From: Sandaracinaceae bacterium
Lineage (GTDB): Bacteria; Myxococcota_A; Polyangia; Polyangiales; Sandaracinaceae
NCBI GenBank assembly: GCA_044220955.1
Contig: JBGAQA010000065.1
Location: 12,612 to 38,082, forward strand
Direction: 5' to 3'
Length of the DNA: 25,471 bases
Positions 4,263-24,003 of the stretch are shown here, piece by piece (positions within the stretch are counted from its first letter, which is position 1; each line of letters begins with the position of its first letter). The translations under genes and the position numbers were made by a program. The notes under the pieces are model-generated. The model was given only the letters and a program-made list of their open reading frames with translations. It had not been told where the DNA came from and made no database searches.

Positions 4263-5627
4263 TTGGCCAAGTCGGAGAAGATCACGATCGAGGTCGGCGG
4301 GCGCGAGGTCACGATCTCCTCGCCGGCGAAGATCTACTTCCCGGACGCGGGCATCACGAAGCTCGACGTCGTGCACTACTTCCTCGGCGTGGCCGACGGG
4401 GCTCTCCGCGGAGCGGGCGGCCGGCCGAACGTGCTCGTGCGCTACGTCGACGGGATCGCGGCGCCGCCCTTCTGGCAGAAGCGCGCGCCCGAGCATCGGC
4501 CCGACTGGCTTCAGGTCGCCTCGCTCCGATTTCCGTCGGGGCGCACCGCCGAGGAGCTCGTGCCCCGTGAGCCGGCCGCCCTCGCGTGGATGGTGAACCT
4601 CGGGTGCATCGAGCTGCATCCGCATCCCGTGCGCGCCGACGACCTCGAGCACCCGGACGAGCTCCGCGTGGATCTCGATCCGGTGCCGGGAGTGGCGTGG
4701 CCGCAGATCCGCGAGGTCGCGCGCGTGGTGCGCGAGACGCTGGCGGACCTGGGGATGGTCGGGTGGCCCAAGACGTCGGGCTCGCGCGGCATCCACGTCA
4801 ACGTTCGGATCGAGCGGCGCTGGAGCTTCCCCGAGGTGCGCCGCGCCGCCCTCGCGCTCGCCCGCGAGGTCGAGCGTCGCGCGCCGGGGCTCGCGACCAG
4901 CAAGTGGTGGAAGGAGGAGCGGCACGGCGTCTTCCTCGACTACAACCAGAACGCCAAGGATCGGACGGTGGCGAGCGCGTACTCCGTGCGGCCCAGGCCC
5001 GACGCGCGCGTGTCGGCGCCCGTGACCTGGGACGAGCTGATGGAGTGCCGGCCCGAGGACTTCACGCTGCGCACCATGCCGGCGCGCTTCGCGGCGATCG
5101 GCGACCGGCACGGGGGGATCGACGCGCACGCCTGCTCGCTCGAGCGGCTGCTCGAGCTCTCGGCGCGCGACGAGGGCTCGGGGCTCGGGGATGCGCCCTG
5201 GCCGCCGCACTACCGGAAGCAAGACGGAGAGCCGCCGCGCGTGCAGCCCTCGCGCGCCCGGAAGAACTGGTCACCGCCCGAGCCGAGGGCGCCGGGCGAG
5301 CTGCCCCGGGCGTCGAGGCGCAAGAGCACGAAGCCCCTGATCGAGATCGGCCGGGCGGAGAAGAAAGAGGACGCCCTCGCCGGCCTCGAGCGCTGGAAGG
5401 CCAAGCACCCGGACGTCGCGCCGCTGCTCGCGCCGGCCGACGTGCTCGTCGACGCGATGCGCGGCCGCTACACGGCGTGGTGGCGCGTGCGCGTGAACCT
5501 CGAGCACGTGCCGGAGCAGAGGCGGCCGGCTCAGGAGGCGCTCGAGGTCGACTACGACCCGGGGGACATCCGTCCGGTGCGCGCGGGTGGTCCGTCGCGG
5601 CGAGCGGGGAGCGAGGGCGAGAGCTAG
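4263..5627 (+). CDS. stand-alone LigD-type primase-polymerase (AEP; Prim-PolC/PolD-like) with C-terminal extension
   Basis: TKLDVVHY, FWQKRAP, LRVDLDP, KTSGSRGIH, VFLDYNQNAKDRTVASAYSVR, VSAPVTWDE; extra C-terminal domain PLIEIGRA...VLVDAMRGR. Confidence 0.92.
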   Translation: MAKSEKITIEVGGREVTISSPAKIYFPDAGITKLDVVHYFLGVADGALRGAGGRPNVLVRYVDGIAAPPFWQKRAPEHRPDWLQVASLRFPSGRTAEELVPREPAALAWMVNLGCIELHPHPVRADDLEHPDELRVDLDPVPGVAWPQIREVARVVRETLADLGMVGWPKTSGSRGIHVNVRIERRWSFPEVRRAALALAREVERRAPGLATSKWWKEERHGVFLDYNQNAKDRTVASAYSVRPRPDARVSAPVTWDELMECRPEDFTLRTMPARFAAIGDRHGGIDAHACSLERLLELSARDEGSGLGDAPWPPHYRKQDGEPPRVQPSRARKNWSPPEPRAPGELPRASRRKSTKPLIEIGRAEKKEDALAGLERWKAKHPDVAPLLAPADVLVDAMRGRYTAWWRVRVNLEHVPEQRRPAQEALEVDYDPGDIRPVRAGGPSRRAGSEGES

Positions 5628-19820: not shown

Positions 19821-20207
19821 TCAGTGCCAGACGTGCTGGAGCGCGCGCCAGCCGGGCGAGCTCGCGTCGCCCGTCGGGGTCACGACGACCAAGCACCGGT
19901 CGCGGCTCTCCGTGAGCGCCTGCTCGCGCTGCGAGAAGTCCTCCAGCGGAAACGACTCGGGGAGCGCACCGGGCCAGATCCACACGCAGACCCGCACGGT
20001 GTCACCCGCGCTCGTCGCGGCGAAGCACTCGCTGCGGACGACGTCGGGAAACGCCGCCGCACGTGGGTCGCTCGGCGACGACGCAGCGAGCGTGTAGCCC
20101 GCCGCGCTCAGGTTGGCGCGGACCTCCGCGGCGCTCGCCGCGTCGTGGGCGCACGCCGCGAGGAGCGGGATCGCCGACAGGGTGATGGCGGGTCCGGCTC
20201 GTCGCAT
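19821..20207 (-). CDS. hypothetical lipoprotein
   Basis: [21 protein letters not shown]-n-TAGCCT -10 box 7 nt upstream. Confidence 0.65.
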
Positions 20208-20240
20208 GGCGAGGAGGCTACCACCGCCTATCATCGCGCG
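20208..20240. promoter_or_regulatory. putative divergent leaderless promoter pair
   Basis: TAGCCT on - (20215-20220) lies 7 nt from ATG 20207; TATCAT on + (20229-20234) lies 6 nt from ATG 20241. Confidence 0.6.
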
Positions 20241-20798
20241 ATGGTGCGTCCTGACGACGAGGCGCTCGCGGATGAAATCGCGGACGAGTCGTCACGCCGT
20301 GTCGATCTCGCGGGTGAGAGTCCCGCCCGGGAAAGCGTCGGAGCGCCCGGTAGCAGGCCCCCGGTGCGGAGCCGAAAAGCTCTGGCCGAAGCGGGGCGTC
20401 GAAAGCCTGGTGAAAGAGACAGGGAGCGAAGCTGCGGGCCGCAACGCGCAGTGAACGCCGAGCAAGCCTCGTCAGATTATCAGCCGAAAGGTGATTGGGA
20501 GCGCCGAGACGGTCATTTCGCGTCGAAGGCCATGCACAGCGCGCCAGATCCGGAGCGCGCGCTGGGGCTCCCCGGGGTAGTGGCGGCGGCACGCAGCGAC
20601 AGATCGACAGGGAACAGGAGAGGTCCGTCCTCGCAGCATTCGTCGTGCGAGGCGGCGCGTATAAGCGCAGAGCGCGAAGTCGCGTCGTGCGAGGCGGAAG
20701 TCCGAGGGGGTCGTAGTACCGACGAAGCGGCGGACAACGCCGCGGAGGGAAGGACCCCTGCTTCGGTCGTGTGGGCGGATGCAGGTAAGCGCGAGGGC

Positions 20799-22211
20799 AT
20801 GCCCGCGAGGGCCAACGACCCCGCAGTGAAAGTGCGAGAACTGCAACGCGCGCTCTATCGGTGTGCCAAGCGGAGTGGGACGAGGCGCTTCCATGCGCTG
20901 TACGACCGGATCTGCAGGCGTGACGTCCTGCAGGAAGCATGGAAGCGCGTGCGCGCGAACGGCGGAGCGGCCGGCGTCGATGGTGAGAGCATCGATGCGA
21001 TCGAGCGGAGCGGGGTCGAGCAGTTCCTCGCGATGATCGAGGCAGAGCTACGCGAAGGCGACTACCGCCCGAGCCCGGTGCGGCGGCAGAACATCCCGAA
21101 GAGCGACGGCAAGCTGCGTCCACTCGGAATCCCGACGGTGCGGGATCGAGTGGTGCAGCAAGCGACGAAGCTGGTGATCGAGCCGATCTTCGAAGCGGAC
21201 TTCCGTGGGTGCTCCCACGGCTTCCGTCCGAGGCGCGGCGCGCTCGGTGCCAAGGAAGCCATCCGTGTGATGGCGAACCGCGGCTACAACTTCGTCGTCG
21301 ACGCGGACATCCGGAGCTTCTTCGACAGCATCGATCAGCAGAAGCTGATCGCGCTGGTGGAGGAGCGGATCTCGGATCGGCGAGTCGTGAAGCTGATCCG
21401 ACAGTGGCTCGGTGCGGGCGTGATGGAGAGCGGCAACTTCCGCGAGACGATCGCGGGCACGCCGCAGGGAGGGGTGATCTCACCGCTCCTGGCGAACATC
21501 TACCTGCACGCCTTCGATCGAACCTGGCAAGCCGAGCACGGTCACGTCGGCGAGCTGGTGCGGTACGCGGACGACTTCGTCCTGATGTGCAGGTCGGAGT
21601 CGGCAGCGAAGGAGGCGCTCGTGCGCGCGAGAGAAATTCTCGCGCGTCTCGGGCTCGTGCTGCACCCGGACAAGACGCGTCTCGTCGACCTGCGAGGCGG
21701 CAAGGAGGGCTTCGTCTTCCTCGGCTGCGTGTTCCGGAAGCGGCGCAGCATCCAGCGGGCGCCGCACAAGCACTTCATGCAGCGGTGGCCCTCGCCGCGC
21801 GCGATGAAGCGCATCCGGGAGCGGGTCCACGATCTGACCGACGTGCGGCGCACGCGCGCGAGCGACGTGATGGAGATCATCGCGGCGCTCAACCCCGTGC
21901 TCCGCGGGTGGGGCAACTACTTCAAGACCGGCAACGCGGACACGAGGTTCAACCAGATCGACGACTACGTGCACGAGCGCATCGTGCAGTGGCTCGGCCG
22001 ACGCGGTGGACAGCGCACGCGCTTCTGGACCTCGAAGTGGCCCTCCACCCGGCTCCACGAGATGGGCCTGCACCGACTTCGCGGAACCGTCCGCTATCCG
22101 TCGCAAGCCACCGAGCAGAGACCGTCGGTAAGCCGTGTGCGGGAAACCCGCACGCACGGTTTGAACGGGGGTCCTGACGTCAACCGCCGGCCGCGGCCGG
22201 CTTTGGAGTAA
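20799..22211 (+). CDS. ltrA: group II intron reverse transcriptase/maturase
   Basis: RT0 [66 protein letters not shown] domain [12 protein letters not shown]; no HNH domain. The frame is also open from ATG 20241. Confidence 0.96.
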
Positions 22212-22224
22212 GGATCTACCAATG
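22130..22224 (+). ncRNA. group II intron catalytic domains V-VI
   Basis: AAGCCGTGTGCGGGAAACCCGCACGCACGGTTT, followed by the GGGGGTCCT/AGGATCT(A)CC stem. Confidence 0.95.
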
Positions 22225-22809
22225 CGGGTGTTCCGGAGCGTGTGCGTGTTCTGCGGCTCGAGCATCGGCGGCGATCCGCGCTTCGCGCAGAGCGCGCGGG
22301 ACCTCGGTGCTCTGCTCGCCGCGCGCGGCATCGAGCTCGTCTACGGCGGCGCGAGCGTCGGTCTGATGGGCGTCGTCGCCGACGCGGCGCTGGCCGGCGG
22401 CGGGCGCGTCGTCGGCGTCCTGCCGCGCGCGCTCGCCGACCGCGAGCTGGCTCACCGTGGCCTGAGCGAGCTGCACGTCGTGTCCTCGATGCACGAGCGC
22501 AAGGCGCGGATGGCCGCGCGCTCCGACGCGTTCGTCGCCCTCCCTGGCGGGCTCGGTACCCTCGACGAGCTCTTCGAGATCACGACGTGGGCGCAGCTCG
22601 GCATCCACGACAAGCCCATCGGCGTGCTGGACGTCGGCGACTACTATGCGCACCTCTTCTCGTTCCTCGAGCGGGCCGAGCGTGATGGGCTCGTGCGCGC
22701 GGCCCCTCGCCCCGCGCTGCACCGCGCGAGCGCGGCGGAGGTGCTCCTCGGCGCGATGGCCGCTCAGCCGCCGCGCCCGGACGCCGCGCCCGACGTACCG
22801 CCGCCCTGA
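22222..22809 (+). CDS. LOG-family nucleotide phosphoribohydrolase (TIGR00730-type); original ATG at 20241-20243
   Basis: VCVFCGSS, LVYGG..VGLMG, MHERKARM, PGGLGTLDELFE. Confidence 0.93.
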   Translation: MRVFRSVCVFCGSSIGGDPRFAQSARDLGALLAARGIELVYGGASVGLMGVVADAALAGGGRVVGVLPRALADRELAHRGLSELHVVSSMHERKARMAARSDAFVALPGGLGTLDELFEITTWAQLGIHDKPIGVLDVGDYYAHLFSFLERAERDGLVRAAPRPALHRASAAEVLLGAMAAQPPRPDAAPDVPPP

Positions 22810-22914
22810 ACGCGCAGGGCCTGCGCCGTGGGTCGCAGACACTGCGCGAACGGGCGCGGTTTCGCTCGTTTCGCGGCCACCGGGACTGGCCGCGGCCTTG
22901 CACGCCGCGCGGGC

Positions 22915-24003
22915 ATGACCACGCGATGCACCGCCGTCCGCTCGTCGCTCGCCTTCGTCACCGTCTTGCTCACCATGCTCGGCGCTGGCTGCTCCGCCGG
23001 GGAGCAGCGCGGCGACCTCGACGTGGGCCCCGCGACGGACGCCGGCCCCCACGAAGATGTGCGCGACACGGGCGCGCGCGACGGCGGACCACGCGACGGC
23101 GGAGACGTCGGGCCGATCGTGCTCGACGCGGGCGTGGACGTCGGCGGAGCCGGCGACACGGGGCTGGGGTCGGACACGGGGCTGGGGTCGGACACGGGGC
23201 TCGGCATGGACACTGGGCTCGGTACCGACACTGGGCTCGGTACCGACACTGGGCTCGGTACGGACACGGGGCTCGGTATGGACACGGGGCTCGGGTCGGA
23301 CACGGGCGTCGGGTCGGACACCGGGCTGGGGTCGGACACCGGGCTCGGCACCGACACGGGGGTTGGAAGGGACACGGGGGTCGGGTCGGACACGGGGCTC
23401 GGGTCCGACGCGGGCAGCGACGCCGACCTCGGCTCCCGCGACGCCGGGCCGGACGCCGCGCTCCTGTGCCCTCCTGGCTATCCGACGGTCCAGATGTGCA
23501 CCGGCACGAGCACCTGCATGTGCGGCATGGGCTGTCCATGCACGATGACCTGCACGGGCGGATCGACGTGCGTGACCGACTGCATCAACGCCGGTACGCG
23601 CTGCAGCATCGACGGTCGCGGCACGAGCTCGCTCACCACGACCTGCGGCGTGGGCACGAGCTGCGGCGTCAACGCCACGGGCACGAGCGCCTCGACCCTG
23701 ACGTGCACCGGTGCGATCTGCACCATCGCGTCGACGGGCGCGAGCGACACGTCGCTCACGTGCATCGCGGGCGCCCAGTGCTCGATCGACGGTGCCGGGT
23801 CGTCCACCACCGCCGTCACCTGCACGGGCGGCAGCCGATGCGACGTCACCTGCGACCACGCCACCGACTGCGGGCTCGCGTGCATGGGCGGATCGGAGTG
23901 CCTCCTCTCCTGCGCGTCGGCGACTCGATGCGCCATGAGCGGCTGCCCGAGCCCGACGTCGTGCCCCGGCGGCGTCACCGTCTGCAACCGCGCCTGCCCC
24001 TGA
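22915..24003 (+). CDS. surface lipoprotein with (DTGLGx)14 stalk and Cys/Thr-rich C-terminal domain
   Basis: LGAGC lipobox; hexapeptide repeat; regularly spaced Cys. Confidence 0.85.
23155..23406 (+). repeat. 18-bp coding tandem repeat x14
   Basis: GACAC(G/T/C)GG..T.GG... units encoding DTG(L/V)G(S/T/M/R). Confidence 0.95.

Follow-up and report, generated by a model that had tools for sequence, protein, structure and literature searches.

Known group II introns at start codons and terminators

Group II introns inserted at initiation or termination codons are known from one clade of subgroup IIB1 (CL1), which includes Avi.groEL and EcKTE56.groEL, and the portion of the article cited here calls it unknown how these introns colonise start and stop codons (PMC12584367). 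The intron described in this study shares with that clade the insertion at a start or stop codon (here 87/89 sites). The published clade carries a 5'-subterminal insertion of 300-700 nt, whereas our intron has 68 nt between its 5' end and the conserved GGGUGAGAGUCCC (20244 to 20312), and the CL1 reverse transcriptase (RT) of that clade has a C-terminal endonuclease, whereas ours is composed of RVT_1 and GIIM only, our tree being one without a CL1 reference. Judged by two tested features, and as far as the cited portion of PMC12584367 goes, the start/stop-codon clade is a different lineage; the 4-nt EBS1 and the AUG end also set our intron apart. Neither leaderless genes nor a -10 box are mentioned in that portion.

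Group IIC introns (e.g., B.h.I1) have an EBS1 of 3-4 bp and an EBS3 without EBS2, contain a CGC triad, and insert after terminators, according to the sections of PMC1702495 used here. They resemble our intron in the short EBS1 (4 nt here), in the EBS3, and in having as a target a class of genomic signal and not one gene, but in our intron EBS2 is present and covaries, the triad is AGC, and a terminator upstream is lacking.

The exon recognition set of IIB-type introns is present, with EBS1-IBS1, EBS2-IBS2, EBS3-IBS3, and delta-delta' supported by covariation. However, the EBS1 has 4 nt and the EBS2 is strong at three positions, compared with about 6 bp each in the sections of PMC1702495 mentioned above. 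With IIB1 and IIB2 introns, as outlined in the available part of PMC8643678, our intron shares three bases between the helix and a five-base EBS2, the third being an A (20472-20474), but it differs in the EBS2a-IBS2a pair, which is absent (20473 against the base 5' of IBS2, 2/72).

An RT-X protein of about 430-470 aa and an intron length of about 2 kb are shared with the endonuclease-less introns filed as 'unclassified', class F, and g1-g4 (partial text of PMC3552965) or U1-U3 (partial text of PMC8919778). The nearest named reference in our comparison is Rh.sp.I1 (unclassified), with 47% identity. Two g1, one g2, and one g3 reference, of the varieties described in PMC3552965, fall outside our clade in the FastTree tree used for reference placement (clade support there 0.99), at 36-41% identity, and g2 proteins have FADD where ours has YADD. 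The lineage may already be catalogued as 'unclassified', since g4, g6, U1-U3, core class F, and My.va.I1 lie outside the comparison. The part of the PMC8919778 supplement at hand contained no named loci of the clade, and a literature search of mostly open-access coverage, with most subscription papers and preprint supplements outside it, found no description of such targeting.

An intron directly behind the start codon of a LOG-family gene

The window, i.e., the whole stretch of 25,471 nucleotides analysed from a Sandaracinaceae contig (JBGAQA010000065.1), carries the intron at 20244..22224 on the plus strand (1981 nt, GUGCG...CUACCAAUG), with ends set from relatives. By its sequence hallmarks, the element that carries the hairpin discussed below is a group II intron, and an endonuclease-less one. 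The 5' junction joins GATG to GTGCG at 20243/20244, the GUGCG at 20244 agreeing with the 5' consensus GUGYG, and the 3' end reads CTACCAATG, after which the LOG-family gene continues in frame. Rfam matches cover 20308-20449 (RF02003) and 22128-22223 (RF00029, 42.4 bits), both on the plus strand. The latter comprises domains V and VI (22128..22223), with the triad AGC in domain V and a bulged A22218, the predicted branch point, in domain VI.

The intron ends with an AUG of its own (22222..22224), which is in frame with the host gene (22222..22809), and the gene is intact from this terminal AUG. The encoded protein belongs to the LOG family, where residues 6-176 match positions 2-172 of the 178 in the NCBIfam profile TIGR00730 (also Pfam ID PF03641). 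The host start codon in front of the intron (20241-20243) opens a frame of 656 codons (20241..22211), which runs through domains I-III into the RT/maturase.

Relatives of the intron

Relatives were gathered by similarity to one RT from GTDB genomes (at least 80 loci), metagenomes (at least 80 loci), a phylum sample, and the own genome; the collection counts are lower bounds, so that the set is a sample, and the kin in it are statistically non-independent. The 184 loci gave an RT match in 178 and a domain I anchor in 133, of which 123 are distinct, and 130 rows were tabulated. The RT tree (129 rows) contains a clade of 102 tips with a support of 0.94, defined without exon or EBS features, to which L004 was joined by hand (103 rows). 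One 5' end was set manually (L002), and three doubtful 5' ends and two 3' ends were removed. Three 3' ends were recovered with a pattern that needs a terminal RTG and are circular for the count of the terminal base. Covariation counts exclude six extra copies of multi-copy introns.

UUGCG or UCGCG replaces GUGCG as the 5' end in L018, L034, L036, L039, L075-L077, and others. The outgroup introns L066, L069, L083-L085, L146, L155, and L183 (Bacillota-type records) lie behind T-rich, terminator-like tracts.

Predicted pairing of the EBS1 loop with the start codon

The original prediction described a hairpin in domain I, at 20503..20530, and took its loop for an EBS1. The hairpin is present in the sequence and in the folded model, with GCC (20503-20505), GA, and GACG (20508-20511) on the 5' side, the loop at 20512-20520, and CGTC (20521-20524), GAA, and GGC (20528-20530) on the 3' side. 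The 151-nt fold that contains it is equal in stability to shuffled sequences (z 0.16), and support for the hairpin therefore rests on the comparison of relatives, in which every stem pair is formed in 94-97 of 96-97 clade rows, with compensatory changes.

The CATT at 20514-20517 (EBS1 CAUU) is complementary to the exon end GATG (IBS1, 20240-20243), which includes the host start codon, with three Watson-Crick pairs and one G-U, as had been proposed. Conservation of CAU in homologues, suggested at the outset as a check, is seen in 94 of the 103 clade rows, the others having CAC (7), CAA (1), and AUU (1). The 5' exons of 89 sites end in ATG (70), GTG (15), TTG (2), or another triplet (2). The exceptions in EBS1 match altered exons (CACG/CGTG, CACU/AGTG, CAAG/CTTG, and AUUA/TAAT), which fixes the pairing register, and EBS1 maps to no other loop.

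Watson-Crick pairs at EBS1 positions 1-4 were counted in 82, 83, 74 (plus 8 G-U), and 66 (plus 10 G-U) of 83 rows, position 4 standing against a shuffled mean of 46.8. Loop positions 5-7 are at the level of shuffled exons (15 vs 11.8, 36 vs 36.7, and 17 vs 15.1; n=83), in agreement with the little pairing beyond CATT that had been noted for this loop. Since position 4 pairs and positions 5-7 do not, EBS1 has 4 nt. A longer EBS1 was considered and rejected: C20519 can pair with G20238 here, but the family is at chance (36 vs 36.7 of 83), and position 5 gave 0/9 compensatory contrasts. Among disjoint nearest-neighbour pairs that differ in the intron base, both members pair in 5/5 for position 3 and in 6/17 for position 4, where many others form G-U, with no crossed case. 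For the CAUU loop, the prediction is a pairing with N-A-T-G that makes up part of a longer address.

L107, a clade member, has the EBS1 AUUA behind GTAAT, a 3' end AAG, and TACACT kept upstream, and was apparently retargeted off start codons.

The delta', EBS3, and gamma positions and the 3' end

U20513, next to EBS1, is delta, as originally assigned. Its partner and EBS3 had been sought in the purine-only GA/GAA internal loop of the hairpin, but the five bases of this loop are invariant (96-97/97 rows) while delta and the first base of the 3' exon vary, and the loop cannot track them. Instead, delta' is A20465, on the 5' side of the coordination loop: 20465 pairs with 20513 in 124/124 rows (U-A or G-C), two of these rows being extra outgroup copies, and the delta scan gave a mutual information (MI) of 0.78 at 20465, with 0.36 at the next column.

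The first base of the 3' exon is C22225 (IBS3), and its pairing with a G had been foreseen correctly in kind; the place was wrong, as the G is G20580. A scan of the +1 base over 449 columns yielded the single column 20580 (MI 1.24, next 0.30). The pair is Watson-Crick at 69 of 81 sites, G-U at 5, and mismatched at 7, with all four pair types occurring; shuffling gave a mean of 22.6 and a maximum of 39 (10,000 shuffles). Both members pair in 23/32 nearest-neighbour contrasts, without a crossed case. The original statement that no pyrimidine is offered to a 3' exon starting with G is false for the family, where EBS3 is a pyrimidine at 49/81 sites and 19/81 of the 3' exons start with G. By fold and comparison, A20465 and G20580 flank the helix 20466-20471/20573-20578 and face each other across another internal loop.

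The gamma position in J2/3 is C20703, the partner of the terminal G22224. Gamma is C in 103/103 clade rows, and gamma-gamma' is C-G in 89/89 clade rows, compared with G-C in 10 and C-G in 1 of the outgroup. The terminal triplet of the intron is ATG at 81 of 89 sites, GTG at 6, and AAG at 2. EBS3 tracks the base after the terminal G and the gamma C matches G22224, which fixes the 3' end at G22224. Group II introns usually end in AY, and this one ends in UG. That usual ending, together with the Rfam model, which stops at 22223, would favour an intron that ends at a canonical AU (22223), splits the start codon between its T and its G, and has one more G at the 5' end. This reading has a negligible probability, considering the invariant gamma C, which in the outgroup follows the terminal base, the covariation of EBS3 with the base 3' of the G, and the C at EBS1 position 1, which pairs with the exon G and in L107 becomes an A opposite T.

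In the outgroup intron L069, gamma is C and the end is UAG, a separate change to a G end.

EBS2 and the upstream -10-like box

Of 88 clade sites, 77 have the motif TANNNT 5-7 nt 5' of the start codon, a position at which it precedes 27 of the 4312 control ATGs taken from these flanks (0.6%); the other 11/88 sites lack it at this distance. The spacer is 6 nt in 53 sites and 7 nt in 23. A TANNNT box 5-7 nt before the ATG marks leaderless genes. At our locus, the box is TATCAT (20229..20234, plus strand), 6 nt 5' of the host ATG, which we interpret as a predicted leaderless promoter, and a sigma-70 promoter scan that included the -35 element returned no site at the locus. SD-like 4-mers occur in only 10/82 of the 5' exons. 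A pairing of EBS2 with a ribosome-binding site was also considered and is not supported by the exon comparison.

EBS2 is GAUUA (20475..20479), and IBS2 (20231..20235) is composed of the 3' part of the box and the next base, 4/5 positions pairing here. With the box as anchor, the partner of G20475 is the base that follows the box, that of A20476 the last T of the box, and that of U20477 the base directly 5' of this T. The five positions are Watson-Crick in 49, 72, 56, 30, and 32 of 72 rows, against 30, 72, 28.5, 17.5, and 18.6 after shuffling, although anchoring EBS2 on the box is circular for the fixed letters of the box. Both members pair in 9/18 contrasts at 20475 and 9/16 at 20477, with no crossed case, and support is strong for 20475-20477. 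Contrasts at 20478-20479 are weak (3/18, and 5/22 with 4 crossed). A register taken from the variable EBS2 bases alone recovers the full T-A...T in 31 of 51 unambiguous sites, 31/82 sites being ambiguous. The EBS2 A opposite the last T of the box is invariant in 103/103 clade rows and variable in the outgroup, which points to an adaptation to the box. We found no RNA partner for the TA of the box at 20480-20481 (13 and 6 of 72) or at 20473, covariation being blind to an invariant partner elsewhere. For the hairpin flagged at the start, the comparison confirms EBS1 and corrects the map of delta', EBS2, and EBS3.

On the minus strand, 20207-20220 contains a divergent gene start with a TAGCCT box 7 nt before the ATG. 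The gene is an ORF of 137 codons (20234-19821, likely start 20207) with no Pfam match, so that the divergent gene and the host gene form two back-to-back leaderless-type starts within 40 bp. With a divergent start and its own box upstream, a co-directional read-through transcript is not evident at this site. As a family trait, an upstream divergent leaderless gene is found at 5/64 sites only.

Probable homing to leaderless gene starts

We consider it probable, from the comparison of related sequences, that the loop is the EBS1 of a group II intron without endonuclease, that the relatives of this intron are located directly behind start codons, that CAUU is part of a longer address, and that the lineage likely homes to leaderless gene starts and not to any gene start. 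The comparison shows an EBS1 that reads the start codon together with the base in front of it, an EBS3 that reads the base behind the codon, and an EBS2 of 3-5 nt that reads the 3' half of the TANNNT box, which lies 6-7 nt upstream. Both the -4 base and IBS2 are located 5' of where transcription is predicted to start, suggesting that selection on these pairings acted at the DNA level, during homing. As we found no Watson-Crick partner for the TA, it most likely reflects the need for a working promoter.

One way to meet this need would be that RNA polymerase opens the promoter and the intron invades the exposed strand. The promoter bubble spans about -11 to +2 and, on the target strand of the intron, would overlap IBS2 and IBS1. 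We rank promoter opening first among the explanations of the unpaired TA, at just under an even chance, above a reading of the TA by the RT and above the survival of expressed copies. Once in place, the intron would be read from the promoter of the host gene, behind a 5' exon of just AUG. Splicing would give back the leaderless mRNA with its start codon, and the terminal AUG would offer a second start if the intron remains unspliced. Taken as a whole, the scenario of a cross-phylum lineage that targets promoters as they open, with base-pairing, on the strand exposed by RNA polymerase, to the start codon plus one half of the -10 box, a triphosphorylated AUG exon, ribosome read-through into the RT, and a terminal AUG that returns translation to the host gene, is tentative and has perhaps one chance in three.

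The RT protein might instead read the TA in duplex DNA, so that the promoter sequence is recognised and transcription is not needed. The TA lies directly 5' of IBS2, and in other introns the RT is assumed to touch between one and four positions 5' of IBS2, but our RT protein has no endonuclease domain, and the endonuclease-less RmInt1 invades mainly single-stranded DNA (both statements on other introns from the available part of PMC8643678), leaving this explanation unlikely, at a little over one chance in four.

Somewhat less probable still is a survival filter, in which a match to EBS1, EBS2, and EBS3 would be enough for insertion and the enrichment of the TA would come only from promoter-borne copies being expressed and harmless. 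It would account for the lack of an intron base that pairs with the TA, including the EBS2a-like position, and for the sites missing the box, and such introns carry no promoter of their own according to the cited portion of PMC12584367. However, near-identical, presumably recent copies are equally enriched in the box (19/22), and the invariance of the EBS2 A opposite its last T is difficult to reconcile with a filter.

The anticodon-like rule of the original prediction, in which CAU and AUG would open most gene starts, is very improbable. Its broader part stands, as the family is found at the start codons of unrelated genes, and the conserved CAU, the start codons at nearly all sites, and the unpaired loop positions 5-7 are as the rule would have them. 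The minimal rule itself does not stand, as covariation with the target extends to EBS1 position 4, to EBS3, and to two or more of the variable EBS2 bases, the box is found at most sites and at 0.6% of control ATGs, leadered starts are rare among the sites, judging from the SD-like motifs, and the host genome has 109,580 ATGs compared with six intron 3' ends. The three-base CAU-AUG picture may still fit splicing, for which a leaderless transcript would offer only AUG as the 5' exon. Reverse splicing into the 5' end of a leaderless mRNA, with DNA reached later, would give CAU an AUG at a free 5' end to bind, but is extremely improbable, as the intron covaries with the -4 base and with IBS2, neither of which such an RNA would contain.

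The introns form a separate lineage with an address that can be read by covariation, and each pairing could be checked by one compensatory change. Such a lineage would extend the two targeting habits of gene-specific homing and terminator targeting by a third, would offer a natural example of splicing in which the exon has three bases, and would mark leaderless promoters among uncultured bacteria. Expression-neutral insertion could profit from an address at gene starts that is short and changeable.

RT protein, reading frames, and host genes

The RT/maturase comprises Pfam RVT_1 (residues 285-496, the protein having a YADD motif) and GIIM (residues 522-596). The Pfam search detected no endonuclease domain, and the frame stops 60 residues past GIIM. 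The 656-codon frame from the host ATG stops 10 nt 5' of the terminal ATG and contains a second in-frame ATG at 20799. Among clade members, 39/88 have an open frame from the exon start codon into the RT, compared with 0/88 in both other frames, 0/16 in the outgroup, and a shuffle expectation of about 0.2. The 49/88 members with no open frame into the RT and the in-frame ATG near the RT start in 93/97 count against a need for the read-through frame. The RT stop lies within 20 nt of the intron end in 10/83.

An SD-like AAGGA (22210-22214) lies within the domain VI stem. As a family trait, a spare SD at the intron end was rejected, an SD-like 4-mer preceding the terminal AUG in only 32/83.

Downstream of the intron, a frame of at least 100 codons is open in the frame of the terminal AUG at 55/68 sites, compared with 11 and 27 in the other frames, and is shorter than 100 codons at 13/68. 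From near its first position, a protein family is matched by 26/59 of the downstream proteins, including dnaX, trpS, nadD, mnmE, and aroC. In L060 the target is dnaX (match from residue 1), and the frame after the intron stops at 128 codons. Elsewhere in the window, a Cys-rich ORF with a GxDTGL repeat run lies downstream of the host gene (22828-24003), and two ORFs at 391-1545 and 4263-5627 resemble, by eye, an ATP-dependent DNA ligase and a LigD-type primase-polymerase.

Intron copies and number of targets

The six intron 3' ends of the host genome have the same form, and its three recognisable 5' ends lie behind ATG, ATG, and GTG. The six multi-copy sets (counted by eye) have ATG or GTG at 22/22 copies, the box at 19, and a paired EBS3 at 20/21, which suggests mobility from sequence comparison. 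An intron contig shared by the metagenome runs X2 and X11 starts at 20240. Among the contigs listed for run X2, high-depth intron contigs extend from 20240 to 22225 at a depth of 118-161 with flanks at about 18, depth not being copy number, and their ends indicate that the copies share GATG and the C beyond the intron. Four DNA and four RNA assemblies contained no spliced or empty-site joints among those listed, where a 3-nt exon would not show, and the four RNA runs hold mostly intron pieces and are uninformative on the expression of the locus. An uninterrupted allele was not found among 11 LOG homologues of relatives, which are distant (about 50-61% protein identity) and of which only one has the box.

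The host genome contains 36,231 RATGY sites. With a box and a frame of at least 100 codons, 79 of these are left, and 24 of the 79 fit the EBS2 core, so that the target pool likely amounts to tens of sites in this genome, as counted from its sequence. Boxes before long frames number 216, 143, 165, and 164 for spacers of 6, 7, 8, and 9 nt in the host genome, whereas the intron sites favour 6-7, a comparison of one genome with many.

L013 and L129 follow a 5' exon whose last letters, TACCAATG, are those of the tail of another intron of this kind, indicating that the terminal AUG can itself be a target and give tandem insertions. In L012, GTGTGTCCAGC, the start of another intron, follows directly after domain V, likely a nested insertion. 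L006 (G000:C34), L007 (G000:C52), and L005 (G000:C93) are remnants with domains V-VI and the terminal AUG, most of the RT being gone, and the L007 remnant is followed by a frame of 329 codons.
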